A stretch of DNA of 64,000 nucleotides, taken from IMG/VR virus record IMGVR_UViG_3300007346_000024; one strand, 5' to 3'. This document shows positions 23,364 through 61,349 of the stretch, piece by piece. The first letter of the stretch is position 1. Each line of letters opens with the position of its first letter. This stretch comes from an uncultured virus (IMG/VR IMGVR_UViG_3300007346_000024) (taxonomy: Duplodnaviria > Heunggongvirae > Uroviricota > Caudoviricetes). The notes under the pieces are model-generated. The model did not search any database, was not told the origin of the DNA, and saw only the letters and a program-made list of their open reading frames with translations. Made by a program: the position numbers and the translations under genes.

Positions 23364-23364
23364 A

Positions 23365-35085: not shown

Positions 35086-35089
35086 AATA

Positions 35090-35097: not shown

Positions 35098-35103
35098 TTG
35101 AAT

Positions 35104-35640
35104 TTACCAATTAAAAATACCTCCAAGAACACTTGAAAAAATTCCTTCTTTCTTTTTTAAAGGCTCATCTTCATCCTCATCTTCATCCTCATATTCGTCC
35201 TCGTCAAAAGATTCTTCGATGTCTTTTTCAATTTCCTTTATCTCTTCTTTTGAAAAACCTTCCTCGCTAAGCCCCTCTTCTCCTTCTTCATCTAAATCCT
35301 CATCTTCATCTAAATCATCTCCATCCATGTTTGCTACCATAGCCTCTAGTATGACAGAAGATAAGTTTCTAAGGTTCAAGAAAGCATCTTCATTACCCTC
35401 CTGTTCTAACTCAGACCTCTTCTCATTAAACTCACTCATCATGTCCTGAACGTCTTTAGGTAATGTAGATATAGAAATATCTTCATCATCTAAATACTCC
35501 AAGTGAGGAAAATAAGAATCTTGAGTCTCTATAGGTTTTTTAACCTCTTTAGATTCTGTTTTCTTTTCCTTTGACTCGTTTTCTATCTCTTCGATAATAC
35601 TTTCAAACTTACTATCGTAAACCTTTTCTTTTCCTTTCAT
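35104..35640 (-). CDS. Acidic protein ending in GIFNW (tag variant)
   Basis: D/E-rich; C-terminus GIFSSVLGGIFNW. Confidence 0.65.
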   Translation of the reverse strand: MKGKEKVYDSKFESIIEEIENESKEKKTESKEVKKPIETQDSYFPHLEYLDDEDISISTLPKDVQDMMSEFNEKRSELEQEGNEDAFLNLRNLSSVILEAMVANMDGDDLDEDEDLDEEGEEGLSEEGFSKEEIKEIEKDIEESFDEDEYEDEDEDEDEPLKKKEGIFSSVLGGIFNW

Positions 35641-35642
35641 AA

Positions 35643-36113
35643 CTAATATCTCAAATCAATTCCGTAACCGTTACAACATTCAGGGCATATATCATTACAA
35701 CTTGTGTCTATAATTTCACCTCCAAATTCAAAACAACCTTGCCTCCTAATGTACCTAGCCTGAAGACCTTCTTTTTTATCACTGTAGTAAGAGCTTTTAG
35801 TTATTTTGTCAATATGCTTTCTCAGGTCTCCCGTTTCAGACATAGCTTGTTTTACAAACTCATTAAGCGAATAATCTGAAATTGGGCTAAAAATAGAGTT
35901 AGATATCAACCTAACATCTTCCTTACTAACTCCTGATGCCTCTGATATTTTAACAATATGAGGCGTGTCTTCAGTTACAGCTCCTTTAGGTGCAGCAAAT
36001 TGCTTCATGTAATCAGCAACATAATCTAGTTTCTGTTCATAATCAAGCCCTTCAGTCTCTTCGGCTAATTTTTTAAGTCTTGATTTTATCCAACCTGCTC
36101 TAGGTGCTTTCAT
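35643..36113 (-). CDS. Hypothetical protein with FEFGG motif
   Basis: 156-aa ORF in operon. Confidence 0.6.
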   Translation of the reverse strand: MKAPRAGWIKSRLKKLAEETEGLDYEQKLDYVADYMKQFAAPKGAVTEDTPHIVKISEASGVSKEDVRLISNSIFSPISDYSLNEFVKQAMSETGDLRKHIDKITKSSYYSDKKEGLQARYIRRQGCFEFGGEIIDTSCNDICPECCNGYGIDLRY

Positions 36114-36114
36114 A

Positions 36115-37014
36115 TTACCAATTTAAGAAAGATAATTTCCCTGTAAAATATCCTTTATACTTTATCGAACCTCCTTTTGATTTTTTATCAATTCTATATA
36201 TAGCAGATATTTCTTCGTACTCCTCAATGTTTTCAGATAAGCTATATTCTCTAGGCTCTCCTCCCCAAGACTCAACTTCTAAAACCTTATCTCCATCAAG
36301 ATATATAGCGTAATGTCTTGGATTATCATCACTACCAAACTGCAAAACATCTCCGCTTTTTAAGCTATCAACTCCTTTATATGGTAGTTTATTAAACTCT
36401 TTAAAAGACCTGTCGTTATGTATCTTATTGCAGAACAATTCGCAATTCATGAAACCACCTTCGCTAACAACTTTTTTATAACGTTCAATTACTGAATCTA
36501 TCTCCCCACCTTTAGCGTACATAGAAACACCTGTAGAGTCTTCTACTCTTATCTCAGCATTAGGAAACTCTCTTTTCATTTCTCTGTAATAAGCAGGTAT
36601 CAATCTATAGTCTTGAATACTAATTTCTTGTTTTAATACTTTTCCTTTTTTAGTATCAACGGCTATAACTGAAAAAGGAGAAGCGTAATCCTCTATAGAC
36701 TTCATTATACCTCTTAAAGAACCTCCTTTAGCTAGCTCTGTCCCTTCGTAAGAAACAACAAGTAAACCGTCTTCATCATCTCCAACTTCCCAAACAGGCT
36801 CTCCTGACTTATCTTCTACTTCCAAGTACCAAACATCTTCTTTAGGATGCATAGCCTGAGCTGATTTAAAAATATCTTCAGCACTTTCATATTCTCCATT
36901 TAAAGAAAGGTCTCCAAGATATTTAGAATCTGAAGATATAATCGTAGCTCTATGTGCTTTAGATGCGTCAAAAGGGATTCCTATATAATTTGTTTTCATA
37001 ATGTTTTTTACCAA
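36115..37014 (-). CDS. GG-linked modular cargo protein with NlpC/P60-like module and LSFLNW tag
   Basis: LAKGG/YAKGG/KSKGG linkers; NCELFC...GDVLQFG...HYAIYLDGDKVLE; ends YFTGKLSFLNW. Confidence 0.65.
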   Translation of the reverse strand: MVKNIMKTNYIGIPFDASKAHRATIISSDSKYLGDLSLNGEYESAEDIFKSAQAMHPKEDVWYLEVEDKSGEPVWEVGDDEDGLLVVSYEGTELAKGGSLRGIMKSIEDYASPFSVIAVDTKKGKVLKQEISIQDYRLIPAYYREMKREFPNAEIRVEDSTGVSMYAKGGEIDSVIERYKKVVSEGGFMNCELFCNKIHNDRSFKEFNKLPYKGVDSLKSGDVLQFGSDDNPRHYAIYLDGDKVLEVESWGGEPREYSLSENIEEYEEISAIYRIDKKSKGGSIKYKGYFTGKLSFLNW

Positions 37015-38267
37015 TTTAAAAATGAAAGCTCTCCATTAAAATAAGAAGAACATGACAATAACCCCCCGTTTTTAAACCTAATTTTAAGACCTGAGTAGTC
37101 CTGAATATCTCTGTGTATGTACTGATAATCACCATCAGAAACAGCCTTAAACTTTTTATATATCTTAGGGACTTGTCTTTTGTTAGACCTGTCAGGAGTA
37201 TAAGAAACTAAACCTTTGTATTTAGGGTTTATATGATTCAAAGCTGCTAAATACATCATTGAGCCTAAACCTTTATTTCTATGACTTCTATTTATATCAA
37301 TAATAGATATTTTCATAAAATCATTAGAAGGACTTAATTCTAAGTAACCAACTTTTTCAGGGTTTCCCTTACCTAAATACCAAAGAGTTATATATGAAGG
37401 ATTGTCCTTGTTGTCAATAGCAATTTCATAAGGTTTGTAGTTGTGATAACCGCTATAGACTATATACCTACCTCCTCTGTCTATTACGCCTCCTTCTTGG
37501 AACAATATAGGCTTTATAAATTCTCTTTTTTTAGAATCTCTTAAAGACCTAATTTCATCTCTTTCTTCTCTAGTCGATGTTGAGTTGGAAGGGATTCTGT
37601 ATTTAGACTCTATTTCTGACAACTTATTAGATTTGCTTTCAGCAGATTCGTAAATTTCTTTAATATCTTCTAAAGAGAGGTTTTTAAATTTCTCTTTTCC
37701 AAATACATTGAATGAAAAAGGTTTTTTGTAAGTGTATAGAACTCTTGGGTTTAAAACGACAATTTCCTGTTCTGAAAAATCAGAACTCCAATCACCTATT
37801 TTAACAGCATCAACACCTTTGTCCCATAAGTCTTCGATAAAATCTTCTAACTCATTTGCGTCCGAAACATCAGGCATGTTTATAACTTTAGCTCCTTTTT
37901 TTACTAAAACTAAATAAACAGAACCGCTTCTCGAATCAGAAGTAAAATTTGAAGCAATATTTTTGCTTTTAGACAAAGACACACCCCAATACTTTTCTCC
38001 GTAGCCTCCTCCTCCGAGTCTCTCTATATCTCTATCAGACACTAATATGCTTGGTTTCAAAGCTGAACCAACATAAGAGCCTGTTCCGTGATAATATATA
38101 TGGTCAGCAAAGTCTTTATAGTTGTCATACTCCAATATATGTTTGTATATTCCGTACTCGCCATAACCACCTCTCCCTGATGACTTTAAAGCTCTTTTTA
38201 TTTTGTCTTTAGTCCAACCGTTTCTTGGTTTAGGATATATTGACCTGTGCTTATTGAGCAATGTCAT
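37008..38267 (-). CDS. ADP-ribosyltransferase plus GNAT acetyltransferase cargo protein with LSFLNW tag
   Basis: YYHGT...GVSLS...EQEIVVLNP (ART); FQEGG linker; IDINRSHRNKGLGSMMY (GNAT motif A); FKNGG; ends YFNGELSFLNW. Confidence 0.7.
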   Translation of the reverse strand: MTLLNKHRSIYPKPRNGWTKDKIKRALKSSGRGGYGEYGIYKHILEYDNYKDFADHIYYHGTGSYVGSALKPSILVSDRDIERLGGGGYGEKYWGVSLSKSKNIASNFTSDSRSGSVYLVLVKKGAKVINMPDVSDANELEDFIEDLWDKGVDAVKIGDWSSDFSEQEIVVLNPRVLYTYKKPFSFNVFGKEKFKNLSLEDIKEIYESAESKSNKLSEIESKYRIPSNSTSTREERDEIRSLRDSKKREFIKPILFQEGGVIDRGGRYIVYSGYHNYKPYEIAIDNKDNPSYITLWYLGKGNPEKVGYLELSPSNDFMKISIIDINRSHRNKGLGSMMYLAALNHINPKYKGLVSYTPDRSNKRQVPKIYKKFKAVSDGDYQYIHRDIQDYSGLKIRFKNGGLLSCSSYFNGELSFLNW

Positions 38268-38270
38268 TTT

Positions 38271-40487
38271 TTACCAATTTAAAAATGATAGCTTTCCTGA
38301 GAAATAACCTGAAGATTTAATTGAACCACCTTTTGCGAAGAATCCCCTATCTCTACCTTTTTCAAATAATTCCTTTTTTAACTCAAACCAACTAATCGCT
38401 TTTTTATCGCTATTATCCAAAACATCAATGCTGATTATATGCGACCATTGTTCTTCTAATTCGTCTAATGTTTTTTCAGTAATTACATATTTTCCTATTG
38501 TTCTACCTTTGGATAGTCCTTTCCAATGCAATTCAACTTCAAATTTCTCTCTTACCTCTCCACCTTTAGCGTATTCTCCATCCTCATACTCTTGTTGCCA
38601 CTCATTAGCATCAAAGTAATACATATCCTCTCCATCTTCTTGTAGAACAACATCGCCAACACCATTAGATTTTCCTTCCATAATGTTTACTTTAACTTGC
38701 TCTAAGATAGAATCATATTTTTCGATAGCATCATCTTCATTATTAAATTTATGGTTGTTAGCTTTTCCAAAATAAGTTGTAACCACATATTTGCCTTCTA
38801 CCTCTCCACCTTTAGCGTATTTTGTAATACCTTGCTCTCTCATATATTGAGTTAGGTCAGACTTTTTAGGTGCGTAAATTGAAGAATGATAGCCATTATC
38901 ATCATAAAGTTGTAAAGTCCAAACTTTTGAATTTGTTTCTTTAATTATCTCGCCTTTTAGTTCCTCTTCTACCTCTCCACCTTTAGCCATTTTTTGAATA
39001 ATAATCTTGTCGTTTGGATAAACTTCTTTAAGCTCTTCTAACTTTAACTCAACAAGCTCTTTATCTGAACCTCTGAAGTAAATTTTATTTGTGTTATCAT
39101 CAACTATGATGTACTTATCACTTACCTCTCCACCTTTAGCGAACAATATTTGTTCTCCATTTATTTCTTCTATTTCATAGTTTTCAGAGTTCATACAATT
39201 AGGTATGCTCGTTCCGTCTGTAAAATGAATTGTATCACTTGTAATTTCTTTTACAAATGACTTTTTTCTTCCATAAGGAGAATTAAATAATATAGTCCTA
39301 ACTGATTTTGATTTTGGGTTAATTGATAAATCGCATCCTACCTCTCCACCTTTAGCGTAATACCCTGTTTCATTAATACTTGTGTAAGTAACCTCAGCAC
39401 CATTAAAACCTTCTTCTGAGTCAGAGAATTTATTTCTAGCTTTATTTTCTGCTAAATCTTCACTTTCTGCTAAAATATCAGAATAAACTTTTTCTCCGCT
39501 TGTTCCTTCTTCTTCGTTTTCCCAATAAACAATAACCTCATATTCTTTTTTCAAAGAACCACCTTTAGCGTATTTTCCTTTACTAGATAAACCTTTCAAC
39601 TCTCTAAACAATTCATCAATATAGCTAATTGAATCATACTTACCAATAGAAACTGAATGAAAGTCATGCCTACCAAAACCTTTATCAACTGTTCTATCAA
39701 TATTAATATAATTGTATTTTGTTAGATTGTCATCTACAAACTTTCTTGCATCTATTAAACTATCAAAAACAATAGGAGTTTGTTCGTCCTTATCTGTATA
39801 AATTTCTATACTTCCACCTTTAGCATATTCTTCTACCTTGAATTTCATTTCTAATACTTGCTTTTTTCCTTTTTCTTTTCCCTCAAACCAATCATTAACA
39901 AACATTTCTTTTGCTTTTTTTATGGCTTCACTATTTGTCTTGGCTTTTACTTTGTAAAAATCATCCCCATATTTAAAGTCTTTACCACCATAAGTAACAA
40001 CTTTTACCTCTCCACCTTTAGCAAATTCTTCAAACCCTTCTAATTTATTTAATGAAACACCTATTGGTCTTAAACCATAAGGCTCATTATCTAAACCATA
40101 ATCAAAAGTATATCCTACCAATTCCATTTCTTTAAGGAAGTTCTTACTATCCTTGTAATTATAGTCACCTTCTATGATTTTAGCTTCGTACTTTTCATAT
40201 ATATCGCGAGCATCTTTTGGTAGCTTTTCGTAGTCCTCAAATAAATCTACCATTCCACCTTTAGCAAAAGAATTATGATATTTACTCATTTGCTTTTGAT
40301 GTATTTCAATTAAAGAGGTTTCAATAAAATTCTCATCTACTTCTTCATCGTATCTCTCACATAGGTTGTCAGTTAACTCCTCATATCTCTCGCTTTCTTT
40401 TTCAGAGCTAAATCTTCCTTGTTTTTTAACAAGTTGTATAAATTCTAATAAATCAGAATCTAACTCTATTCTTTTATCTTTTCCCAT
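38271..40487 (-). CDS. Polyprotein-like array of ~10 mini-domains separated by [FYM]AKGG, with LSFLNW tag
   Basis: Ten AKGG motifs separating unrelated ~50-80-aa modules; ends YFSGKLSFLNW. Confidence 0.75.
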   Translation of the reverse strand: MGKDKRIELDSDLLEFIQLVKKQGRFSSEKESERYEELTDNLCERYDEEVDENFIETSLIEIHQKQMSKYHNSFAKGGMVDLFEDYEKLPKDARDIYEKYEAKIIEGDYNYKDSKNFLKEMELVGYTFDYGLDNEPYGLRPIGVSLNKLEGFEEFAKGGEVKVVTYGGKDFKYGDDFYKVKAKTNSEAIKKAKEMFVNDWFEGKEKGKKQVLEMKFKVEEYAKGGSIEIYTDKDEQTPIVFDSLIDARKFVDDNLTKYNYINIDRTVDKGFGRHDFHSVSIGKYDSISYIDELFRELKGLSSKGKYAKGGSLKKEYEVIVYWENEEEGTSGEKVYSDILAESEDLAENKARNKFSDSEEGFNGAEVTYTSINETGYYAKGGEVGCDLSINPKSKSVRTILFNSPYGRKKSFVKEITSDTIHFTDGTSIPNCMNSENYEIEEINGEQILFAKGGEVSDKYIIVDDNTNKIYFRGSDKELVELKLEELKEVYPNDKIIIQKMAKGGEVEEELKGEIIKETNSKVWTLQLYDDNGYHSSIYAPKKSDLTQYMREQGITKYAKGGEVEGKYVVTTYFGKANNHKFNNEDDAIEKYDSILEQVKVNIMEGKSNGVGDVVLQEDGEDMYYFDANEWQQEYEDGEYAKGGEVREKFEVELHWKGLSKGRTIGKYVITEKTLDELEEQWSHIISIDVLDNSDKKAISWFELKKELFEKGRDRGFFAKGGSIKSSGYFSGKLSFLNW
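38553..40022 (-). repeat. Six identical 18-nt direct repeats GCTAAAGGTGGAGAGGTA encoding AKGGEV
   Basis: Copies at 38553, 38799, 38970, 39123, 39339, 40005; four further partial copies. Confidence 0.85.
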
Positions 40488-40503
40488 TTTATTTTATTTC
40501 TAA

Positions 40504-41907
40504 TTACCAATTTAAAAATGACAAATGACCTTCAAAACAACCTTTTTTACGACCTTTGATTTTACCTCCTTGCTCGTAAAGCTTTCCTGAGTCTCTGTAC
40601 TCTTTGATTAACTCATTATAAATACCCTCAAGCATAGGTACATGACTATCTCCTACGAACATTTCAGACATAATATGAGACTTAAACTCATCTGTAGGCT
40701 TGTATTTATAATTACCTGCATAAGTATTAAAAAGGGCTTTCATTTCATCTTTAAGCTCTTTCTTAAGCTTAGCATCCTTTTTAGCTTTAATCCTTTTTCT
40801 AGCAGCTTCGTTCTTAGCCTCGATTTCTTTTTTCCTGTCTTCTTTAGCTTTCTTGTCAGCTTCTTCCTTAGCTTTTAACTCTGCTTTCCTAGACTCTTCT
40901 TTCTCTAAATCAGACTCGATATGTTCTCTAGCTTCTGACTCAGTATCAAACATTCCGTAAGAAACCTTGTTCATCGAATCTTTAGGGACTTCAAAGCCTC
41001 CTTGAGCAAGTTCGATATAAGTAACTCCCATGAACTTACTCTTAACGTCTTCTTTAGGCTCTTCAAGTAACTCATAATTAATAGCTACATAATGAACAGC
41101 TCCGAAAACATCATCATCACTCATAGCTCTAAAAAGCTCAGGATAACCAAACCCTTGATTCTCTGATAATTCTTCCATAACAGACTCTCTAGAACCCGTA
41201 GACATGTCTATATCATCAAGGTCTAACTCGTAAGCATCAGCAACACTCTTAATAGCTTTGTAAACCTTGTCATCACTCAACGCTCTAACTATTGCAGAAG
41301 GGTCTATACCATGCTCAACTTCTAAGTGTTCAACAGCAGCAATTCTATCACCTGTTTCAGCAGGTATTCCCGCTGATTTTAATCTGTCTTGAATTTCAGA
41401 ATGGTCTAACTCACCACCTCTAGACATCTTTTTTGCAGGTTCTTTTTTTACAACCTCGAAAGAACTCAATAAGTCAGAAACTTGCTTTCCATCCTCGTAT
41501 TTAACTGTAACAGTTTTTTGGTCAGGAATAGCCGAGTCAACACCTACAGCTATAACTTCTCCAATCATTGTAGCTTTAGGATATTTAAGATAGTCCCCTA
41601 TTTCAACAGAACCTCCTCTAGACATTTTTTTTACAGAATTCATGCCTACCAATCTTTTCTGATGAGCTGTTCCATACTCAGAAACATAATCAATAATCTC
41701 TTTTTCAATCTCATCTAACTGCTCATTCGATAAGCTAGAAAACTTTTTTATACCCGATAGATGAGAATGAGTTTTTGGAAGGTTTCCATTAGTCTGAATA
41801 CTAAAACCTCTTTCCCCTTTAAAACTTAACTTAATTGCTTGATTACCATTTCTATCCTTCTTTCTAGAATGCAAATGGATTTCTGAATTATTTAACTTCT
41901 TAGCCAT
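40504..41907 (-). CDS. GG-linked modular cargo protein with LSFLNW tag
   Basis: MSRGG x2, YEQGG; ends CFEGHLSFLNW. Confidence 0.7.
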   Translation of the reverse strand: MAKKLNNSEIHLHSRKKDRNGNQAIKLSFKGERGFSIQTNGNLPKTHSHLSGIKKFSSLSNEQLDEIEKEIIDYVSEYGTAHQKRLVGMNSVKKMSRGGSVEIGDYLKYPKATMIGEVIAVGVDSAIPDQKTVTVKYEDGKQVSDLLSSFEVVKKEPAKKMSRGGELDHSEIQDRLKSAGIPAETGDRIAAVEHLEVEHGIDPSAIVRALSDDKVYKAIKSVADAYELDLDDIDMSTGSRESVMEELSENQGFGYPELFRAMSDDDVFGAVHYVAINYELLEEPKEDVKSKFMGVTYIELAQGGFEVPKDSMNKVSYGMFDTESEAREHIESDLEKEESRKAELKAKEEADKKAKEDRKKEIEAKNEAARKRIKAKKDAKLKKELKDEMKALFNTYAGNYKYKPTDEFKSHIMSEMFVGDSHVPMLEGIYNELIKEYRDSGKLYEQGGKIKGRKKGCFEGHLSFLNW

Positions 41908-42005
41908 TGTACTTGTTTTTCCCTTTTAAAACCACTAAAGGAGGGCGATAAAAATCTAACCCTCCCGTAATAGTTACCTTTACATATTTCTTTTTAGATA
42001 GCTCA

Positions 42006-43076
42006 TTATTTTAGAAATGAAAGATAAGACCACTCGTCACTACCTCCTGTTTCTACAAAACCTCCATCTTCTTTTTTAACAACTCTTCTCTTAGTCTTAG
42101 CCTTAGCTTTTTTCTCTTCTATTTTATCTTTCTCTTCTTGAGCATCATCTTTATACCCTTCTAGGATAGTCATGATTTCTTTTCTTTGACCTTGAGGGAT
42201 TTTTTTACCCATTAACATTTCCAATTTGTCAAACAGGTTTCCAAAAGCTTTTTCTACTTCAGATACAGCTTTCTTAACTTCATCCATTGACTTATTGTCA
42301 TCGTTCTTTTTAGCTTCCCCTACTATTCTTTTAGTAATTGTCGCAAAGCTATCGACAACTTTAGTAGTTACAGGAATCTTTTTAGCTTCCTCTCTACCTT
42401 TTTCTCTTGCTGCTTTATGCTCAGCCTCTTCCTTTGCTTTCTCCTTAACTACCTTAAGTGCTTTCTCACACTCGTTTTTAGAAGCTTCATCATTGAAAAT
42501 ATATTCTTTACCATCAACAACTAACTTGAATACTTCTTTCTTTTCTTCTTTTTTAGCAGGAGCTTTTTTAGCAGGAGCTTTTTTAGCAGGAGCTTTTTTA
42601 GCAGGAGTTTTTCTAGCGGCAGGCTTTTTTTCTTCTTTAGAAAAAGCTTTTTCAGAAATCTCGATAATATTTGAAGCTTCTTTTTTTGCTTCTTCAGCTA
42701 ACTCCTTAGCTCCTTTAATAGCTTCTGAAACACCTGAGTTAGAGTAAATCTCTATAATGTCATCTTTGATTATTTCTCCGTCTTCAGTCATCTCCCTAAC
42801 GAAAAACTTGAAAGACTGTGTCTTAGAATCCTTTTTCTTAGAATCTTTTTCAACTTCTTTCTTCTCGTCTTTTTTATCCTCTTTCTTAGATTCCGCTTTC
42901 TTGACAGCCTCTTTAACTTTTTTACTGTCTTTGTCCCTAGACTCTAACTCAGCCTTATGCTGCTCAAGTTGCTTTAAAACAAGTTTGTTTTTTCCATCAA
43001 ACTTATCGTTGATACCTTCTAGTGATTTTATTTTTGCTTCTAATTTCTCTTTTGAAAGCTTTTTTAAGTCGCTCAT
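42006..43076 (-). CDS. Lys/Glu-rich protein with histone-H1-like PAKKA repeats
   Basis: PAKKA repeats; KEDGG then C-terminus WSYLSFLK. Confidence 0.65.
   Translation of the reverse strand: MSDLKKLSKEKLEAKIKSLEGINDKFDGKNKLVLKQLEQHKAELESRDKDSKKVKEAVKKAESKKEDKKDEKKEVEKDSKKKDSKTQSFKFFVREMTEDGEIIKDDIIEIYSNSGVSEAIKGAKELAEEAKKEASNIIEISEKAFSKEEKKPAARKTPAKKAPAKKAPAKKAPAKKEEKKEVFKLVVDGKEYIFNDEASKNECEKALKVVKEKAKEEAEHKAAREKGREEAKKIPVTTKVVDSFATITKRIVGEAKKNDDNKSMDEVKKAVSEVEKAFGNLFDKLEMLMGKKIPQGQRKEIMTILEGYKDDAQEEKDKIEEKKAKAKTKRRVVKKEDGGFVETGGSDEWSYLSFLK
42549..42624 (-). repeat. 15-nt tandem repeat encoding PAKKA
   Basis: Plus-strand TTTTTAGCAGGAGCT repeated about four times. Confidence 0.75.
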
Positions 43077-43078
43077 TC

Positions 43079-43615
43079 TTATAATTCTTTTAGATACTTA
43101 ACAAATTTATAGATTATTTCCTTTAGTTCTGAAATATCATCAGAAGATAACATTTTATGAGGTATTTCTTTGAATATTTTTTCAAAAATTCTCTCAATCA
43201 ATTTACTTGATGAACTTTCTATTTCTAAGCCTATCTTTTCAGCATATTCAACCAAGTAATTAACATCCATTTCGTACTTCTTTACCGCAGTACCAATTCT
43301 TTTGATATACTTTTTTTGTAGACTTGTAAGTTCTTCTGTTGAGGCAAACTCATCCCAATTAGAGTCGATATGACCTCCATTTTCAAAAGATAAGTCAACA
43401 ACTTTATCTTTTATTATATCCCCCTTAAGACTTTTAGCATAAGTACTACTAATTTCTTCAAACCCTTTAAAATCATCTTTCATTTTATCTGAAAGACTCC
43501 TTATCTCTAGCTCAATAAAATTAATCTCCTTGTTAAGCTCGATAGAAGAACTCTTGAGAGAACTCAACCTTTCCTTAGTTTCAAGGTATTCTTTGTATTT
43601 GTTTTTATCTATCAT
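43079..43615 (-). CDS. Helical protein with FENGG linker
   Basis: 178 aa, two helical halves. Confidence 0.6.
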   Translation of the reverse strand: MIDKNKYKEYLETKERLSSLKSSSIELNKEINFIELEIRSLSDKMKDDFKGFEEISSTYAKSLKGDIIKDKVVDLSFENGGHIDSNWDEFASTEELTSLQKKYIKRIGTAVKKYEMDVNYLVEYAEKIGLEIESSSSKLIERIFEKIFKEIPHKMLSSDDISELKEIIYKFVKYLKEL

Positions 43616-43626
43616 AACCTGTGTTT

Positions 43627-45516
43627 TTACAAATTTTTAAGCATCTCTAAAGTTTCAAGCTCTTCTTTTAATTGATTATAAGATTCAGGGTCATCCTCTT
43701 CAGAGAATATCTCTAACATCTCTTTAATAGCCTCGTACTCATCAATAATTTGCTGCATATCAGCATCCACTTCTTCCTTATCGCTCTCTACATCATCGTC
43801 TAAATCTAAAGAATCTAAGTCTATTTCATCAACCTCCTCTTCCACTTCTTCGATTGTTGGCTCAGGCTTAGCTTCAGGCATAGCTGATTTATCACTAAGA
43901 CCAATAATAGAAAGCCCTGTTATCTCTGTAACATCTCTTAAGAAATCAAACGTTTCTGAATCAGCACTTCTTAGCTTGCTATAAACTGTATCTAGCTCAT
44001 ATACTAATTCTACTTTATCAGGTATAGAAAGTTTCTCTCCATCAGTCTTTATCAATCCTATAACATTCCCTGACTGAACAATTTGCAAGAATTCATCAGA
44101 ATATAAAAACTCTATATTCTTTCCATAGTACTTCTTAAAATAACCAATGCTTAAAGCGGTAACTGAAACATATTTACCATTTTCAAGATAGAAATAAGTC
44201 CTAGACTTTGAGAATATTGAAGGTGTACCGAAGTCGTTGTATGACATCAAAGGGTATGCCTTTTTTTGATTTTTAAAAGAAGATTTAGAAACTACTCCTG
44301 ACTCTCTATCAAATTTACTTACATCAATCGTATTAGATTTTAAATGTGTTCCTACTTCGTAAAACGAAAAATCTTTTAATTGATTTGGAGAATAATAAAC
44401 AGTTGAGTTAACTTGAATAAAAGAACCTCCTTTTTCGTACATATACTGAACAGGTATGTAACAATAATCAATATAGTTGACACCGTATTGATAGTGAGGG
44501 CTTAATTCAGAAGAAACACTACTTAAATTTTCGTCTTTCTCAAAACTTTTAAGGTTTTTGAATATTTTAACAGCGTTGTTTTCATTGTCTGAAAAAGTTC
44601 TTCCTGTAATAGCTTTATCAAACTTACTATTCACTAGTTCGTCATAATATTCTGTATCAAAAATATCTTTCTTCAATGATGCATCTGTAAGACCAAGCAT
44701 ATCAGAATAGAAAGAGTTGTCAAATAATGGAATTAACTCCTCTAAAAGCTCTTCATTAGCTCCAACAATATAAGCCTTGCTTCTTTTCTTTACAGCTTCT
44801 TCTAATAAAGATGTTAATGATAGTACGGTGTCCGTAGCATTAACATCACTAGGGTATGAGAAAATTATTTTTGCAAAGAAATTAGGAAGCAGAATCATGA
44901 AGTAGTCACTACCATTAGCCCCTTCTTGATGATAAATCTTATTATCACTTTTAGAAACACTAAGTATAACAGCTAAATTAGCTATAGCTCCATACATAGA
45001 ACCTCCTGAAATAACCCATTCGTAACCAAACAAATCCGAATCAATAACTTCTTCAGCACCTTTTTCCTCTTTTTCCTCTTCTTCCTCTTCTCCCTCTTCA
45101 GACTCATCTAAGTCTAATTCATCTAAGTCTAATTCATCAACATCAACAGACTCTTTAGAAACTCCTTCTTTTTCATCGTCTTCTAATTCAATATCGGAAT
45201 CGTCTAAGTCTAAGTCGTCTAACGTCAACCCTTCTAGGTCAAAGTCTATATCAGAAATATCTATGTCTATTGAAATATCGTCTTTAGACTTAACTCCGTA
45301 CCCCATATCTTTAGCTTTTTCTATGAAAGATTCAGATTTTATAAAGTTGTTAAAATCCCTTAAAGCTATTTCGTATTGTTTAACTGTTAACTCATCTAAC
45401 AGACCTGATTCAACAAGCTCACCAAGAGCCTTCAATTCAACGAAGGTCTTGTAAGCTACTTTATCAATCTTTTCAAGCTCTACGCTACTAATTCCTAATG
45501 CTTCTAAAGCTTTCAT
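43627..45516 (-). CDS. Large acidic protein with (D/E)LDLD repeats and C-terminal helical hairpin
   Basis: 629 aa; coupled to helicase gene. Confidence 0.65.
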   Translation of the reverse strand: MKALEALGISSVELEKIDKVAYKTFVELKALGELVESGLLDELTVKQYEIALRDFNNFIKSESFIEKAKDMGYGVKSKDDISIDIDISDIDFDLEGLTLDDLDLDDSDIELEDDEKEGVSKESVDVDELDLDELDLDESEEGEEEEEEKEEKGAEEVIDSDLFGYEWVISGGSMYGAIANLAVILSVSKSDNKIYHQEGANGSDYFMILLPNFFAKIIFSYPSDVNATDTVLSLTSLLEEAVKKRSKAYIVGANEELLEELIPLFDNSFYSDMLGLTDASLKKDIFDTEYYDELVNSKFDKAITGRTFSDNENNAVKIFKNLKSFEKDENLSSVSSELSPHYQYGVNYIDYCYIPVQYMYEKGGSFIQVNSTVYYSPNQLKDFSFYEVGTHLKSNTIDVSKFDRESGVVSKSSFKNQKKAYPLMSYNDFGTPSIFSKSRTYFYLENGKYVSVTALSIGYFKKYYGKNIEFLYSDEFLQIVQSGNVIGLIKTDGEKLSIPDKVELVYELDTVYSKLRSADSETFDFLRDVTEITGLSIIGLSDKSAMPEAKPEPTIEEVEEEVDEIDLDSLDLDDDVESDKEEVDADMQQIIDEYEAIKEMLEIFSEEDDPESYNQLKEELETLEMLKNL

Positions 45517-52551: not shown

Positions 52552-52753
52552 TAGACAACATAAACAACCCTTTAGTGTTGTTTACTTTGCACAATAAAAC
52601 TCTATCATTCTTAACAAGTTCAGTCTCTTTGAACGAAACTTTACCACCTGTCTTTTCCATTGTTGAAAATGACTTTATACTGCCATCTTTTTTTTCTAAC
52701 AAAGAAAAGAAATCAGAGTCTTTATCTACTTCAAAATTTGGATTCACGTACAT
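52523..52753 (-). CDS. Hypothetical protein
   Basis: 76-aa ORF in operon. Confidence 0.5.
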   Translation of the reverse strand: MYVNPNFEVDKDSDFFSLLEKKDGSIKSFSTMEKTGGKVSFKETELVKNDRVLLCKVNNTKGLFMLSNGSTEVDFI

Positions 52754-52756
52754 ATC

Positions 52757-53449: not shown

Positions 53450-53450
53450 T

Positions 53451-55204: not shown

Positions 55205-55253
55205 TACTTAATTTATATTTTACAAAATACATATTATTAAACAATATGCAACA

Positions 55254-56126: not shown

Positions 56127-58242
56127 GAACCTTTGCTAAGGTTTTCTTCTTAGGGGAATTAGTTTTTAAAAGGCTAGCCTGAAGAGCTTTAACCTGATTG
56201 AGGTAATTGTTTTTTATGTACCTCCTAGCTTCTTCGTTATCTTTAATCTTATCTCTAGTTGAATTGTTTAGATTAGCAACAATAATAGGGAAGCTAGAAT
56301 TCATTGCTTTAACTGCTAACTTATTAGTTATTGTATGCTTAAAAGCAGATTCATTAAACGCTACTAAAGCTTCATCAGCAACTTCGTCAACTTCTTCTTG
56401 AGACATTGAATTCAACTCCCTCTTAGTAGCTCCGTAAAGAGCTTGTTCAGCAGCTCCTTTATCAAATTCTAAACTCTGATTAGAAGGCAAGTCGTTGTAA
56501 ACTCTTAAGAAGAAATCTTGGAAATCTTTAGTAATAGAAGCAATGTTATCTGATTGATTATCAGAATCATTAACCACCTCCGTGTAGAACACGTTAACAA
56601 TAGCAGGTACAAGGTATTTGCTCACTTCTAAAGGAACAACAGCTCCTTCAGTAGAGTACATTACAGCTTCCATGTATTTCTTAAGTGTGTCAGTCCACGA
56701 AATCAAACCTTGCAATCTTGTAGCCCCTTCAACCTCAACAACCATAGATTGATAAGCGTCTCTTAGTTTTTCAGAAATATCATCAGACACAGCGTCATAA
56801 CTTCCGAAAGTATCAATCAATTGCTCAATTTCACCCCTTAAAGACTGACTCTGTCTTTCTGACTGCTTAACATCTTTTCCAATGTTCTCAGGTTGTAAAA
56901 TATCAGATGTAAGGCAATCAAAAAGCCTTTCCGAAGTATCAAAAACCTCTCCTTTAGCAGACAGGTCTTCAAAGTTGTCTTCTAAAACTTTATAAAGAGA
57001 TGTGAATTTCTTTTCATTATTCCACTCTCCTTTAGAAGCGTTAGCTTGCATTACATTCTGAATAAACAAGTTTCCTACTAAGTCATTTTTGTTCATCAAC
57101 TTAGGAAGGAAGTTATATTGCCATTGAAGGTTTATCTCATCAATTTTCTGAACCAAGCTACTATCTATGATGTAATCTCCTTGCTCAATACCTCTATCAA
57201 TCATAGCGTCCTTAACGCTTTTGATGCAAGATTCAATATTGCTTTGCTCTAAATTGATTTGAGAACGTCTCCAAATAAGTAAATCTTCAGCAATCACCTG
57301 AACGAATCTTCTAAATAAAGCTTCCTCGATATTTTCAGTTTTATTAGCGATAGCCATAACTCTAGTATCAAGAACGCTTTGCTTATTATCAAGCTGAATA
57401 TTAAGCTCATCAATTATACTCTGATAACCTCCTTTATTTCCTTTTACTTTTGAAGGAACTCCAATACCCTTTCCATCATTAACGTCAATCATTCTAAAGT
57501 TCTTCAAAGTTCTTTCACGAACAATATGAAGTAACGGAGCGAATTTGTCTTTATCGTATTTTTCAACCTTGTCAATCTCATCTAAGATTAACCAATAATT
57601 ACCGTAACCTAACACTGTTGTAAGGTAAGCACAAAAGTCTTTTAAATCATCTCTGAAATACTCATCAGGAACTTGCTCTCCACCTTCGTTTTCATCCCTT
57701 TTCTCTAAATGCTTAAACATTGGAAAAGGTTTCGAGTTTAAAGTTACTTGTTTTCCTGTGTCTTCGTTATGCTCAACAAGTATAGCCGATTTTTCCAACT
57801 TCCCATCAGCTAGAATATCTTTTTCATCTCCCCATTTCAAGTAAGATAAACCATTTAAAAGCTGCTCTAATTTTAGGTAAGAAGCATCAAAATCACCATC
57901 ATAGTAATTCTTGATGAATTTTTCAAAAATAGCTCTACCATTAGAAACTGACTGACTAATAACTTCTGCATTTGGAAACCAATAAGGCTTTAAGTATTCA
58001 AGAATATCGCTTTTACCGTCCCCTCTTTCCGTTAATTTAGGAACACCCTCGATATTCTCTGACTTCTCAGAACCGATATACAATAATGAGTGTGTGATAT
58101 TCCATTTCTTAGTAATATCAATAAGCGTATATGATTTACCAATTGAAGACTTTCCTAATGTCAAAACAGGAATGTCGTACCTGATTAACTGTAGAACGGT
58201 CTTAATCGTTAAGTTACCGTCAAATGTCTGTTCGTTAGCCAT
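56107..58242 (-). CDS. MoxR-like AAA+ ATPase
   Basis: GKSSIGKS, LILDEIDK, MAIAN, ALFRRF. Confidence 0.8.
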   Translation of the reverse strand: MANEQTFDGNLTIKTVLQLIRYDIPVLTLGKSSIGKSYTLIDITKKWNITHSLLYIGSEKSENIEGVPKLTERGDGKSDILEYLKPYWFPNAEVISQSVSNGRAIFEKFIKNYYDGDFDASYLKLEQLLNGLSYLKWGDEKDILADGKLEKSAILVEHNEDTGKQVTLNSKPFPMFKHLEKRDENEGGEQVPDEYFRDDLKDFCAYLTTVLGYGNYWLILDEIDKVEKYDKDKFAPLLHIVRERTLKNFRMIDVNDGKGIGVPSKVKGNKGGYQSIIDELNIQLDNKQSVLDTRVMAIANKTENIEEALFRRFVQVIAEDLLIWRRSQINLEQSNIESCIKSVKDAMIDRGIEQGDYIIDSSLVQKIDEINLQWQYNFLPKLMNKNDLVGNLFIQNVMQANASKGEWNNEKKFTSLYKVLEDNFEDLSAKGEVFDTSERLFDCLTSDILQPENIGKDVKQSERQSQSLRGEIEQLIDTFGSYDAVSDDISEKLRDAYQSMVVEVEGATRLQGLISWTDTLKKYMEAVMYSTEGAVVPLEVSKYLVPAIVNVFYTEVVNDSDNQSDNIASITKDFQDFFLRVYNDLPSNQSLEFDKGAAEQALYGATKRELNSMSQEEVDEVADEALVAFNESAFKHTITNKLAVKAMNSSFPIIVANLNNSTRDKIKDNEEARRYIKNNYLNQVKALQASLLKTNSPKKKTLAKVLEFLFA

Positions 58243-58372
58243 TTCTTAATAAATTGAATTGTTATTTTAAATCTTATTCCTGTTTATGTTTGAAAATTTA
58301 TTTTTTAAAATATAAATTATTTCATCAAACATTTTGTTTTTCTTTAGCATTCTTTTAAACACCGAACTGTTG

Positions 58373-58380
58373 CAAAGATA
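58373..58380 (-). promoter_or_regulatory. -7 box TATCTTTG
   Basis: TAnnTTTG upstream of the AAA operon. Confidence 0.55.
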
Positions 58381-58430
58381 ATAAATAGACGCTGAGGTTC
58401 TACAATCTATTAACAACCTTGTTCTTAAAT

Positions 58431-60257
58431 TCAAGATATAGCTATCGTTTCTAGTAAATCTAGCTCGTCTTTAAGCTGCTTAATATCTTCTTTTGAGGCG
58501 TATGTAGTGTCTGAAAGAAGTAATTTTATTGTTTCTATTTCATTTTTAATTTGAATCAAGTCTTCATCATCAGAATCCTCGTCAGTTGAAAACAAATCCA
58601 TCTGAGCCTCTTCTGCCTCTTCCGTAAGAACCGCTCCTTTATCTAAAATAGACTCGTAAAGCTCTCTAATAGATTTAACTTTAAAAAACCCTTCTTCTTT
58701 AAGCCAATATTCAAGCTCGAAGAAACCATCTCTTGTAAAGAATAAATACTTAACAATATCCTCCTCTTTAGCATCGCTTAAAATATCTACAACATTAGAA
58801 TCATTGCTTTGCTCATAAAAAGCCATTAAGTTCTCGTAGCTTTTAATACCCGCTCTTTCAAAATCTCTCCTTGTTTCTCTAGGAGCAGCTTTAAGGTAGT
58901 CTTTTAGCTCTTTATCGTTTGTTATGTCTTCGTTCTCAACTATGTAGTCTATATCGTTTGAAAATGTATGTACAAAATCTTTAACATCAATCTGATAAAC
59001 CGACTCGGTCACATCTCCTTCTTTGCTTGTAGCGTCTATTAAATAGTCAAGCATCTTAACTTCATTCTTTGAAAGCTTTTCTTCGTCAATCCTATCTGTT
59101 ATTATCCAATTATAGATTCTAAACAGATTAGACCTGTTTCTTTCATTCATTGACTTGCTAAGGTCTGATTTCTTCCATTGGTTAAAATAACCAACTTCAC
59201 CACCTTTACGCATGATAATATCAGGGTTATTAGGGTCGTACATTCCTGAATTACCAATAGCTGATTTTATATGAGTAGGCTCAAAAACTATATAATGAAG
59301 GTCTCCATACTCAATACCTTCCATAGGCATCCCGTTTTTCCTACCCTGACCAAATTCATTGTAAGCATCCTGAATTATACCATCAAAACCATAGTCTTCT
59401 AATCCTTCTCTGATTATCTCAGAATTAACAAGCTCACCTTCATCATTAGTAGCGTAAAGCATCGTCTCTTTTAAAGCATTAAAAAAGTCTTTTGGAGTCA
59501 TTCTAGCCTCCTCATCAGTAAACTTGTTTTTCAATGTCTCAAGTTCTTCAATATTTACATCGTTATAAGAATTAGATGCTGATACTATCTTGTCAATAAT
59601 ATCAATCGCGTTGCCCTCTATTTCAGGGTTGTAGTCATCATAGTATTTTTCACGCTTAAGGTCTTCTATAGCATCCTCATACTCCCAATCCTCATCGTAA
59701 TCACCCCTATCTATCTCTCCCTTAGCCTCATCCTCATAATACTCCCAATCAATCTCAGCAAATATTGTTTCTTCATCTGAAGACATGTCAAAAGGATTTT
59801 CCATTTTTATAAAAGCAGGTATAACAGCTCCGTCATGCTCTCCTTTTAGTTTTTTAGTGGCTAATCTTTTTGAAAGGGTTTCTAGAAGCTCTTCGTTATC
59901 TCCGTTTTCAATCTCTTCAGCAACAGAAATATCTATATCGAATAAATCAACAAGCTCATTAGCATCCATGTTTTCAGCTTGAGATTTTATTTGGTCTGAC
60001 TTTCCTTCAATATTATTAGTAAGGTCAGCTCCTATTCCCGCATAATTAATACTCGCATCATCCGCTGAAGTTGTGAAGTAGTAACCTATACCTACAGCGT
60101 TACCGATAGTACCTCTATCAGGTTCAAAGCTATCGAAATCATGAGTCGTCCCATGATAAACAACTAAAGGCTCCCCATCTTCATCTACAACTTTACTTTC
60201 TCCAAACCAACGCTTAAAATTAGCGTTGTCCAACATTGATTTATTCATATTATTCAT
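58431..60257 (-). CDS. ART-PolyVal-type ADP-ribosyltransferase fusion protein
   Basis: FKRWFG.SKVVD.DG.PLVVYHGT...GYYFT...P.F.KMENP...GFDGII...YIVFEP..IKSA.GN.G.YDP...DI; MRKGG linker. Confidence 0.8.
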   Translation of the reverse strand: MNNMNKSMLDNANFKRWFGESKVVDEDGEPLVVYHGTTHDFDSFEPDRGTIGNAVGIGYYFTTSADDASINYAGIGADLTNNIEGKSDQIKSQAENMDANELVDLFDIDISVAEEIENGDNEELLETLSKRLATKKLKGEHDGAVIPAFIKMENPFDMSSDEETIFAEIDWEYYEDEAKGEIDRGDYDEDWEYEDAIEDLKREKYYDDYNPEIEGNAIDIIDKIVSASNSYNDVNIEELETLKNKFTDEEARMTPKDFFNALKETMLYATNDEGELVNSEIIREGLEDYGFDGIIQDAYNEFGQGRKNGMPMEGIEYGDLHYIVFEPTHIKSAIGNSGMYDPNNPDIIMRKGGEVGYFNQWKKSDLSKSMNERNRSNLFRIYNWIITDRIDEEKLSKNEVKMLDYLIDATSKEGDVTESVYQIDVKDFVHTFSNDIDYIVENEDITNDKELKDYLKAAPRETRRDFERAGIKSYENLMAFYEQSNDSNVVDILSDAKEEDIVKYLFFTRDGFFELEYWLKEEGFFKVKSIRELYESILDKGAVLTEEAEEAQMDLFSTDEDSDDEDLIQIKNEIETIKLLLSDTTYASKEDIKQLKDELDLLETIAIS

Positions 60258-60690
60258 TTTCTAAGTCAACTATCAAAAGTTCAAATTCATTCGGGCTTAA
60301 TATCTCGTAAACCTCATCAAAATAAACTTGTTTACGATTCATACACGCATATGAATTTATGTACTCACCCTTATCTAATTCACCCTTGAAAAAGTTAGTG
60401 AAATTAGTATTATGATACCTGTAAATGGAGTTATCTCCATGATATTCTAAGTCAAAACCTTTTTGATATTCTTTAAAAGCATCGAACAATAGAATCTTAG
60501 CACTTCTGTAGTTGATGATAACTTTATAAATATAGCCCGACTTGTGCTTTCTGCTCACCATGAATGGGTCGCTAAAAAGTTCGGGAATCCATCCTATTGA
60601 GTCCCAATCGTATTTTTCAAATACCTCGTTACTATGAAAATAAAACGATTCCATTACCAATTTAAGAAGCTCAATTCTTCTATAAACCAA
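60250..60690 (-). CDS. Hypothetical protein
   Basis: Aromatic-rich ORF; true start likely MESFYF (TAATG-coupled at 60654). Confidence 0.55.
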   Translation of the reverse strand: MVYRRIELLKLVMESFYFHSNEVFEKYDWDSIGWIPELFSDPFMVSRKHKSGYIYKVIINYRSAKILLFDAFKEYQKGFDLEYHGDNSIYRYHNTNFTNFFKGELDKGEYINSYACMNRKQVYFDEVYEILSPNEFELLIVDLENE

Positions 60691-61349
60691 TTAGAGATTA
60701 AACCTCCTTTCGACATTCCTTTTTTACCCTCTAAAGGACAAGCTATAACAGCTTTAACTCCCGATTTTAAAGATATAGTCCTAAACGAGTTTTTAACGTA
60801 AGAATCAGGGTTATTTTGTCTAATTCTATACGAGTCTTTGTACTCAGTAATTTTACCATATCTAAAATCATGGTCTTTAGCCCACATTCTAGATTGCTGT
60901 TTGTTAAATGCTGATTTATGGAATATAAGTGTTTGAATTTCAGTACCTACAGGACAAACAAAACCTCCGTCTTTGAAATAAACGCTTTCATTCTCAACTC
61001 TACAAGATTTCTCACCTTGCATTTCATTAAGAATTTCCGATATTGTTCCTTTTCTATCTCTTTTAGAGTCATCAAGAACAACCATTTTACAAACAATAAA
61101 ATCACCTGTATTCATTGCCTCTTGATTAAGCTCACAAACATAGCTAGTATAGATTTCGTCCAAAACCTCTTTATTGGTCATGGATTTAAAATCATACTCT
61201 TTATTTGAGTTGTAAGCCTCTCGGCAAATGTAGTATTCGTCTCCCTCTATCTCTATCTTTCTTCCCGTTTCAACTATTTCAGAAGGAATACCTCCTAAAG
61301 AATGGGGCTTCCCTATAAAAAGCCCCTTTGTATCCTTTTTTTTAGGCAT
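60654..61349 (-). CDS. Two-domain GG-linked protein with LSFLNW tag
   Basis: G.F.GKPH..GGI...EIEGDE domain; FKDGG; QTLIF.K..F...W...H...RIRQ..P domain; MSKGG; ends WFIEELSFLNW. Confidence 0.7.
   Translation of the reverse strand: MPKKKDTKGLFIGKPHSLGGIPSEIVETGRKIEIEGDEYYICREAYNSNKEYDFKSMTNKEVLDEIYTSYVCELNQEAMNTGDFIVCKMVVLDDSKRDRKGTISEILNEMQGEKSCRVENESVYFKDGGFVCPVGTEIQTLIFHKSAFNKQQSRMWAKDHDFRYGKITEYKDSYRIRQNNPDSYVKNSFRTISLKSGVKAVIACPLEGKKGMSKGGLISNWFIEELSFLNW

Follow-up and report, generated by a model that had tools for sequence, protein, structure and literature searches.

The 64,000-nucleotide window analysed here is a stretch of DNA from an uncultured virus assigned to the Caudoviricetes (IMG/VR record IMGVR_UViG_3300007346_000024), and it contains a block of genes whose products consist of modules separated by a Gly-Gly (GG) joint and, in several cases, end in a common C-terminal tail (or tag) with the sequence LSFLNW. 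The G+C content of the window is 33%, and of the 84 genes predicted in it, 80 are on the minus strand, among them all those of the block (Table 1). Searches with Pfam and PHROGs recognised a holin, an endolysin, a DnaA-type helix-turn-helix (HTH) protein, a resolvase-like protein, the giant SNF2 helicase and the ART-PolyVal protein; no capsid, portal, terminase or phage-tail gene was recognised by them among the 84 window proteins. Downstream genes begin 1–17 nt after the tags, and the TTG starts listed for the open reading frames (ORFs) 36115–37014 (37012–37014) and 60250–60690 (60688–60690) lie within the AAT TGG TAA of the preceding tag; the true starts are probably the next ATG codons (MKTNYIG... 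and MESFYF...). Labels beginning with L, G and P (L003, G004, P0143) denote related contigs, genomes and proteins compared with the window, and X4 and X9 denote sequencing runs.

Table 1. Genes and features of the block, in window coordinates.
Feature	Coordinates	Strand	Remarks
99-aa protein	61351..61650	-	N-terminal hydrophobic stretch; family end DGWDSDxLxxG[IL] conserved
Tagged 231-aa protein	60654..61349	-	domain 1, YFKDGG, domain 2, MSKGG, tail ...ELSFLNW
ART-PolyVal protein, 608 aa	58431..60257	-	PF18760, E 3.5e-20; MRKGGEV directly after ART; no tag
MoxR-like (AAA_5 / bpMoxR-like) ATPase, 711 aa	56107..58242	-	Walker A GKSSIGKS at 30, Walker B WLILDEID at 217
Candidate zincin metallopeptidase, 290 aa	55254..56126	-	HEMGH at 132-136; C-terminal KOW/PWWP-like barrel
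Polyacidic protein, 249 aa	54455..55204	-	37% D+E; basic helical C-terminus
VWA-like (DUF2201) protein, 334 aa	53451..54455	-	MIDAS motif intact, DTSGS at 173-177
SNF2/helicase, 2261 aa	45516..52301	-	Pfam Helicase_C, SNF2-rel_dom, ResIII; phrog_1685, phrog_62, phrog_11801
178-aa protein	43079..43615	-	single joint motif FENGGHI; no tag
Lysine-rich protein, 356 aa	42006..43076	-	variant tail EDGG-x-WSYLSFLK
Tagged 467-aa protein	40504..41907	-	three joints: MSRGG twice, YEQGG once
Tagged 738-aa chain	38271..40487	-	about ten small modules; ten [FYM]AKGG joints, 51-85 aa apart
Module 1 cassette of the 738-aa chain, 260 nt	40012..40271	-	also in another viral contig (96.2% DNA identity)
Tagged 419-aa protein	37008..38267	-	N-terminal domain, LFQEGG, weak GNAT, RFKNGG, tail
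Tagged protein, at most 299 aa	36115..37014	-	module A, LAKGG, module B, YAKGG, weak NlpC/P60-like domain, KSKGG, tail
Polyacidic 178-aa protein	35104..35640	-	variant tail ...GIFSSVLGGIFNW

A preliminary description of this DNA, made from the letters alone, had reported that five ORFs (36115–37014, 37008–38267, 38271–40487, 40504–41907 and 60654–61349) end in [YCW]F-x-[GE]-x-LSFLNW, and this was borne out: FLNW closes five of the 84 window proteins, every other C-terminal four-residue sequence occurring once, and the five tags differ in their synonymous codons. The variant tails of the 35104 and 42006 proteins, which it had also pointed out, are likewise real and are kept in relatives, as GG-[MI]F-x-G-[IV]LGGI[FL][ND][WY] in seven of nine members of the former family and as EDGG-x(8-14)-WSY[LA]S[LF][LM] in all six of the latter. 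It had put the motif about 13–17 residues before the end of each tagged protein; the distances of the last GG in the five are 17, 17, 17, 19 and 15 residues. Across 58 distinct tails the consensus, about 18 residues long, is GG-x-[IV]-K-S-x-[YW]-F-x-G-E-LSFLNW; positions that the search did not fix are conserved as well (53 of the 58 have Y/W at -11, 34 have S at -13 and 29 have K at -14), and the last GG is 12–20 residues from the end in 45. Within the tail, codons vary freely (Leu at -6 is encoded by TTA in 23 cases, CTA in 20, CTT in 8, TTG in 6 and CTC in 1; Ser at -5 by TCN in 33 and AGY in 25), which indicates that selection acts on the peptide.

The tail is widespread beyond the window. 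A degenerate DNA pattern for F-x-G-x-LSFLNW-stop matched metagenome records 121 times at 85 loci, and 91 of these matches (56 loci) end an ORF of at least 40 aa; the other 30 consist of 28 chance matches in short frames and two tags cut by contig ends. A contig carries at most five tags, mostly on neighbouring genes. The same pattern gave a single chance match and no true tag in IMG/VR, and 16 matches, none of them a true tag, in 185,579 species genomes. When a profile of 43 tails was run against 1.84 billion representative proteins, 124 clusters were retrieved at E <=0.001, and in 121 of them the tail forms the extreme C-terminus (LSFLNW in 95, LSFLNY in 16, LAFLNW in 5 and other forms in 5). 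Tagged proteins span 44 to ~1200 residues, and a Pfam family (E <=1e-5) could be assigned in 15 of the 103 tagged clusters scanned: ART-PolyVal in six, LPD11 in four, DUF6496 in three, TopIB in two, and LPD3, DUF5824, Poly_export and Pdc1_Ge1 in one each. The 39 tagged proteins of the loci give the same picture of the cargo, with GNAT also among their domains. As judged from these comparisons, the tail is a peptide-level signal common to unrelated cargo. Literature searches turned up no description of the tag or of the joint; among the papers listed, SFLNW occurs only in unrelated ones.

Among the recurrent tagged cargo is a type IB topoisomerase (Topoisom_I, E down to 5.5e-27), usually followed by DUF6496 (L014, L019, L033, L044, L052 and L065; P0225 and P0253); the window contains none. 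In an untagged sister lineage, the chains end after the last GG in another conserved module of about 30 residues, ...GG-[AI]M-LLAKxIRKxGESWxxALKRAxxQLK, which has the look of two helices (L004 9131-11143, L005 181-3219, L006 8816-11191) and recurs in more than 30 of the P0003–P0122 matches. This end module may be an alternative address, which suggests that a GG followed by a terminal address is a general plan, with LSFLNW as one address among several.

The second element common to these proteins is the joint. A motif of the type [FYM]-x-x-G-G-x-[VIL] had been put at about 25 occurrences in ten proteins; its abundance is real, and the count comes down to 21 in eight proteins of the block, with four further occurrences elsewhere in the window. 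The stricter form [FYM]x[KREQDN]GGx[VIL] has 20 occurrences among the 21 proteins (8706 aa) of the block and none among the 63 proteins (11828 aa) outside it, and 1000 residue shuffles of the block yielded a mean of 0.27 (sd 0.51, max 3), far below the observed frequency. Chance, low complexity or an assembly artefact has a negligible probability as the source of these patterns, as the shuffles exclude the first, 91 tags stand in independent metagenome records, the tail ends 121 protein clusters, and the gene of the 738-aa protein is present in contigs of 23 run rows from 13 studies. Sample labels identify 22 of these rows as freshwater metagenome and one as mollusc metagenome (with a small share of words), and the same protein is also recorded on contigs of up to 93,865 bases.

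Several lines of evidence place the joint between modules. In a logo of 1829 GG sites from 178 polyproteins, K occupies -4 in 22%, Y, F and M occupy -3 in 30, 23 and 11%, A occupies -2 in 39%, K occupies -1 in 32%, and V, I, L and T occupy +2 in 22, 19, 13 and 11%; GG sites number 1.48 per 100 aa in these polyproteins versus 0.47 for 890 further proteins encoded at the same loci. Among 119 related multi-domain proteins, homology breaks within 5 aa of a hydrophobic-x-x-GG at 66% of 16099 starts and 56% of 15626 ends of high-scoring segment pairs (HSPs), compared with 15% of 31725 random positions. The 738-aa chain matched 242 proteins; among the 120 matches listed, mostly a single module was common (~12% coverage), and nearly all of these proteins carry many hydrophobic-x-x-GG sites. 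The internal copies of module 1 of this chain have a GG just upstream in 163 of 165 cases and just downstream in 140 of 164, and the module also exists as a free ORF of 61–89 aa without GG in P0143, P0155, P0171, P0180 and L007. It was the only part of the chain matched by tblastn, in Cellulophaga and Polaribacter phages, and megablast of 35000–45000 against cultured phages gave no match. In the 146-kb Cellulophaga phage phi4:1, module 1 forms the second half of the 175-aa gp130 (L001 11836-12363), where it is preceded by ...DEGGENFF.

The most conserved tagged cargo is the 231-aa protein, with matches in 18 loci; its gene lies next to that of the 99-aa protein, a family whose 10 members (9 contigs) in all cases have their genes immediately upstream of the first tagged gene. 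In the 231-aa family, domain 1 is followed by GG and then at once by the tail (forms of 153 and 157 aa), or by one or more different GG-closed modules and then the tail. An AlphaFold2 (AF2) model of this protein (mean pLDDT 62) has cores at 38–119 and 137–206, and the joints and the tail fall outside the cores in segments of pLDDT <50 (120–135 and 207–231); a Foldseek search with the model gave no match. Pfam envelopes in relatives are GG-bracketed in the same manner, for example LPD11 at 569–636 between GGs at 563 and 643, and in relatives the ART domain of the 58431 protein recurs with GG and the tail immediately after it (e.g. L019:4094-5128). The domain boundaries named in the preliminary description fared unevenly: MRKGG does follow a confirmed ART-PolyVal domain in the 58431 protein, and both GNAT in the 37008 protein (E 7e-4; 20.3 bits vs a Pfam cutoff of 20.7) and NlpC/P60 in the 36115 protein (E 1.1e-3; 19.3 bits vs 23) stay below threshold. 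The ART domain suggested for the 37008 protein was not confirmed: Pfam detected none, and BLASTP to the ART domain of 58431 was empty. From the sequences, we conclude that polyvalent proteins (Dar-like, ART-PolyVal, LPD) have the joint K-[YFM]-A-K-G-G-x-[VIL] at the boundaries of their modules.

At the DNA level, the joint has a further property. In the 738-aa gene it is a direct repeat of 18–21 nt present in 7–9 copies (GCT AAA GGT GGA GAG GTA); in other genes and viruses its codons vary and the peptide is kept, which indicates that the peptide is under selection as well. At 67 [FYM]AKGG joints from 30 loci, GCT is used in 76% versus 39% in the background, AAA in 100% versus 73%, and GGA for the first Gly in 7% versus 36%. 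The clearest sign of exchange is module 1 itself: window positions 40012–40271 and L003 9998–10257 share 260 nt with 10 mismatches (96.2% identity), the homology beginning in the upstream joint and ending in the downstream joint, with unrelated flanks on both sides. The core proteins common to L003 and the window are 25–48% identical, and the only other nucleotide match between the 20-kb L003 locus and the 64-kb window, 228 nt of 69.7% identity at 36506–36732, corresponds to module B of the 36115 protein, which is also GG-bracketed and sits in a different gene in L003. In runs X4 and X9, the match of contigs to the window breaks off at 40012 and 40271; at 40271 the contigs go on into a flank of the L003 type, so the two contexts coexist in the same waters. 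Proteins that start with M-x-x-KGG or end in YAKGGK look like junction scars. No deletion between joint repeats was seen in contigs of four runs, contigs being a form of data that drops rare variants. On this nucleotide evidence, the GG joint is a seam for the recombination of single cassettes between viruses.

Such a seam has a parallel in the gp38 adhesins of T-even phages, in which Gly-rich motifs flank variable segments that are swapped by recombination between the motifs. The likeness, which is one of mechanism and not of family, lies in exchange break points that fall within conserved flanking motifs; the gp38 motifs lie within one fold and swap receptor-binding loops, whereas here the joints lie between independent domains and whole modules move. 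A reading at the RNA level, in which a AAAGGTGGAG-type joint acts as an internal Shine-Dalgarno (SD) sequence for internal starts or as a ribosome pause, would account for joint DNA that is purine-rich, conserved and codon-biased. It is very improbable, since no start codon follows a joint at a fitting distance, the best SD-like coding (AAA GGA GG) is avoided at joints, relatives keep the peptide and change the codons, and such signals are rare in the window: its gene leaders are 47% A, and GGAG, GAGG or AGGA occurs at -20 to -5 of only 4 of 84 genes compared with 9.7% of random 16-mers. The internal Shine-Dalgarno reading was rejected on this rarity.

The flanks of the locus and one of its repeats deserve mention. 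Positions 63042–63974, just after an exonuclease-like gene, encode a phrog_3657 family protein (also in L020, L057 and L074) that occupies the slot of the RecT-type annealing protein of G004, which puts a recombination module directly upstream of the cassette-shuffling locus. At 62373–62870, a 165-aa protein matches phosphatidylserine decarboxylase (PF02666, E 3.2e-6) over that enzyme's C-terminal part. Within the lysine-rich ORF 42006–43076, a 15-nt tandem repeat present five times (42533–42629) encodes AKKAP repeats (AKKAPAKKAPAKKAPAKK); contigs of several runs end or diverge there (loose ends at 42550–42604), and one contig of run X9 joins 42860 to 41236 through 36 other letters and may be rearranged or a related copy.

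The proteins that these joints connect belong to a known class. Polyvalent proteins, as defined by Iyer et al. in 2017, are chains of 2–15 unrelated effector domains with mosaic domain shuffling (PMC5512222). Unrelated effector domains are likewise combined in one polypeptide here, as in ART-PolyVal with LPD3, TopIB with DUF6496, DUF5824 and GNAT, DarA_C with N6_Mtase and DUF5661, and chains with Zeta toxin, and the signature families of the class are present (ART-PolyVal, LPD3, LPD11, DarA_C, ddrB-ParB, Zeta toxin and DUF2958; PF18760 in the window and PF18824, PF18798, PF18789 and PF18763 in relatives). GG-chains of the relatives contain ddrB-ParB, DarA_C, LPD11, ART-PolyVal, Zeta toxin, N6 methylase, DUF2958 and a sliding-clamp domain; these families place GG-chains among the polyvalent, Dar-like proteins. 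The sliding-clamp domain is the central domain of DNA polymerase III beta, found at residues 748–858 of a GG-jointed chain (L004 3164-6409; E 4.6e-11). Unlike the proteins described earlier, the modules here are mostly 50–90 aa long and mostly without a Pfam family, and the earlier text describes no standard joint, shared terminal tag or cassette-exchange seam and contains the words 'glycine' and 'linker' zero times (PMC5512222). The standard GG joint, the shared tail and the cassette-exchange seam are new relative to the polyvalent proteins so described.

The literature treats polyvalent and Dar-like cargo as delivered with the DNA (PMC5512222, PMC9024508, PMC7824862). In phage P1, 30 N-terminal residues of DarB suffice for head loading, and the Dar proteins have no common consensus (PMC9024508). 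The block resembles the P1 Dar system in having a helicase of 2261 aa, DarB-like in size and type, beside accessory proteins of the anti-restriction type; of the Dar components, the helicase is clear in the window, with no methyltransferase domain shown in that protein, and DarA_C and ddrB-ParB are found only in the relatives L006 and L003. The two systems differ in that the P1 signal is N-terminal whereas the one here is C-terminal and common to many proteins, and in that P1 DarB carries the signal whereas the DarB-like protein here has no tail.

Short address peptides at protein ends are familiar from other systems. T4 internal proteins bear an N-terminal capsid-targeting sequence that the prohead protease cuts after Glu, and encapsulin cargo-loading peptides are C-terminal and follow a flexible linker. 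By description, the tail can be set beside both as a short terminal peptide outside the fold on unrelated cargo; it differs from them in that no shell, scaffold or prohead protease was recognised here, and from the N-terminal targeting of P1 and T4 in its C-terminal position.

Between the first tagged gene and the helicase, and between the two groups of tagged genes, lie four genes that encode the MoxR-like ATPase, the candidate zincin, a polyacidic protein and the VWA-like protein. This gene set is present in the window and in nine other tag-bearing contigs, that is, in every related contig that spans the region. In searches run without a positive control, the ATPase, zincin and VWA proteins were not found in five IMG/VR records of untagged GG relatives. 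The zincin family, like the tag, is absent from IMG/VR. In the ATPase, Walker A, Walker B and Arg residues are invariant across seven sequences; its first Atlas match (0.95) is a viral cluster with AAA, AAA_5 and bpMoxR, Pfam gives AAA only at E 0.0099, a profile search yielded no relative in the PDB, and tblastn against cultured phages yielded no match. HEMGH is invariant in nine of nine zincin sequences. Its AF2 model (mean pLDDT 64.8) has BlaR1 as the best Foldseek match (E 3.6e-3, none at <=1e-3), and its fold Z scores (VIA) are 6.2–6.3 for the minigluzincins jannalysin, selecase and abylysin, 5.9 for BlaR1 and 5.8 for BepA, which are middling values; by motif and predicted fold, the 55254 protein is a candidate HExxH zincin peptidase. 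In one related contig (L071/L072), the polyacidic protein and the zincin form a single 544-aa fusion. The 53451 protein is by its residues a VWA-like protein with MIDAS, D173, T174, S175, G176 and S177 being invariant in six of six sequences; Atlas places it at 0.94 with DUF2201 clusters, some of which also carry a DUF2201_N metallopeptidase, and Pfam gives DUF2201 at E 0.022. Profile searches of the PDB with the zincin and VWA alignments returned nothing relevant, and a predicted complex of the VWA protein, the zincin and a 40-aa tail scored 0.00, 0.42 and 0.00 in runs without controls.

In jumbo phages, a MoxR-vWA pair occurs with an N-terminal metallopeptidase, and a role in virion assembly, as a chaperone with peptidolytic processing, has been proposed for it (PMC7824862). 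The set described here is similar in that a MoxR-like ATPase, a VWA protein with MIDAS and an HExxH peptidase lie side by side; ours differs in that peptidase and VWA protein are separate genes with a polyacidic protein between them and in that the ATPase has 711 aa (PMC7824862). The set here is, unlike that of jumbo phages, embedded in and co-inherited with tagged polyvalent genes. To our knowledge, no substrate of a MoxR-vWA-metallopeptidase set has been known or proposed earlier.

We hold with high confidence that the proteins are built of modules, that the joint stands at module boundaries, that the tail is a peptide-level signal and that cassettes are exchanged at the joint. Building on this, we propose that the products of the block are polyvalent (multi-effector, Dar-like) proteins, made by an uncultured aquatic virus, and that their chains would be assembled from small, independently folding modules that elsewhere are free genes of 60–90 aa. 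As a peptide, the joint would be a flexible connector between folded units; as DNA (~11–21 nt, GCT AAA GGY GG...), it would be a seam through which cassettes are cut in, cut out and passed on by recombination. In a subset of chains, the last GG would be followed by an 18-residue tail (...[IV]K-S-x-[YW]F-x-G-E-LSFLNW-COOH) that is part of no fold and serves as an address read by one common partner. The most likely partner would be the four proteins inherited together with the tag, namely the MoxR-like ATPase, the VWA/MIDAS protein, the HEMGH zincin and the polyacidic protein. That the tail is an address for a dedicated partner is probable in our view; that this partner is the MoxR/VWA/zincin set and that the outcome is particle loading with trimming at the last GG is rather unlikely. 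For the picture as a whole, of polyvalent modular chains with a standard joint that doubles as a seam, a tail address and a MoxR/VWA/zincin partner, we see an even chance.

What the tail does could also be explained inside the infected cell. The chains would then never be packaged, the tail would be a timing or localisation signal (a degron for a host or phage AAA+ protease, or a signal that tethers them to a membrane or compartment), and the GG would be a linker and recombination scar. The block is preceded by many small genes of early type and an exonuclease/annealing module and is followed by replication genes; an AAA-type ATPase beside a metallopeptidase recalls the logic of AAA+ proteases, to which the FtsH-type proteases belong; and the tail is hydrophobic with an aromatic terminal residue, in a virus that encodes dozens of tail-anchored membrane proteins. 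These number in the dozens and are small proteins in which 2–4 basic residues follow a C-terminal membrane anchor; their genes lie at approximately 11000–24600 of the window and in L093/L094 of G004; the virus may contain a membrane or may merely be very divergent. As a membrane tether, the tail would make only a weak amphipathic helix (two peptides of the main tag have hydrophobic moments of 0.09–0.20, the GIFNW variant one of 0.33), and its near invariance in 121 clusters points to one specific partner, not to lipid or a general protease. Moreover, the cargo families (DarA_C, ddrB-ParB, ART-PolyVal, LPD, TopIB) are held to travel with DNA, and we consider this explanation unlikely.

Processing at GG is the other matter on which the preliminary description had taken a position: there the tail loads the chains into the virion, and a GG-specific protease removes the tail, cuts every internal GG and frees dozens of small effectors for injection. 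Viral polyprotein processing of this specificity is known from the adenovirus and African swine fever virus (ASFV) proteases, and the sites resemble those here in their GG core, in a hydrophobic residue a few positions upstream and in their place at unit boundaries, with the differences that no homologous protease was found and that the hydrophobic residue here lies at -3 from the first Gly. The chains would suit such a protease in that each module has one joint (the 178 polyproteins average about one GG site per 68 aa), GG is hardly ever replaced (163 of the 165 upstream junctions of module 1 retain it), the conservation of -3 (Y/F/M, 64%) and +2 (V/I/L/T, 65%) resembles that of a recognition site, modules can exist as small free proteins, the tail is set off from the cargo by the same GG, and joints and tail are predicted to lie in non-folded segments. 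P1 Dar and polyvalent proteins are, moreover, packaged and in some cases processed (PMC5512222, PMC9024508). The protease itself is the difficulty: neither a GG-type protease (clan CE, C39 or other) nor a prohead protease was recognised with Pfam and PHROGs in the 84 proteins of the window or in a 92%-complete relative, a negative that does not establish absence since most window proteins have no family, and the only peptidase candidate, the HEMGH zincin, tracks the tag and not the GG motif, being absent from GG-rich untagged relatives. Joints that are at times 6–20 aa apart or 1–5 aa from a terminus would be cut to no purpose, the conservation of the joint at the DNA level would need a separate explanation, and the virus has no recognised structural genes. 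We therefore regard this full scheme as unlikely, and cleavage at every internal GG, taken alone, as somewhat doubtful. An 'address and cassette' scheme, in which the MoxR-VWA-zincin set reads the tail, loads the chains and cuts the GG while the same joints trade cassettes as DNA, appears improbable; if true, it would make one motif both a processing site and a recombination site.

Several points weigh against the explanation that we prefer, in which the tail is an address on seam-jointed polyvalent chains. The link between the tag and the MoxR/VWA/zincin set consists of synteny in about ten contigs of one lineage and of the control-less negative searches, and the divergent, tag-bearing contigs L020 and L057 carry other large genes at the expected site of the set before they end. 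The zincin call consists of an invariant HExxH and middling fold scores (Z 5–6.3). The 119 homologues behind the homology-break figures were gathered through a word index that included the motif itself, and their HSPs are non-independent; the codon bias at the joints could reflect identity by descent and not selection for recombination; and the low pLDDT of joints and tail in the 231-aa model may stem from an alignment of nine rows and not from true flexibility. With no capsid, portal, terminase or phage-tail gene recognised in the window, and no recognisable structural gene found with PHROGs among the 53 ORFs of >=100 aa outside L006 in the 92%-complete G004, the word 'virion' is an assumption, and the tagged block lies between a recombination module (exonuclease/annealing protein) and replication genes, outside any recognisable structural module. 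Loading and cleavage are hypotheses. The original observation is thus confirmed and extended beyond the window, and the mechanism first attached to it is partly supported: tag, package and cleave is a good hypothesis that now has a candidate machine.

Polyvalent proteins are thought to be a main way in which phages bring counter-defence enzymes into the cell. The portable 18-residue tail, found on no fewer than 121 protein clusters, may act as a general signal for loading or handling; if so, it could be used as a tool to bring foreign cargo under that control. The tagged chains are also the first candidate substrate class for the phage MoxR-vWA-metallopeptidase set. Through the standard joint, single effector modules of 60–90 aa are exchanged between distantly related viruses, and the same joint marks hundreds of small modules as independent functional units, which makes it a parts list for anti-defence screening.

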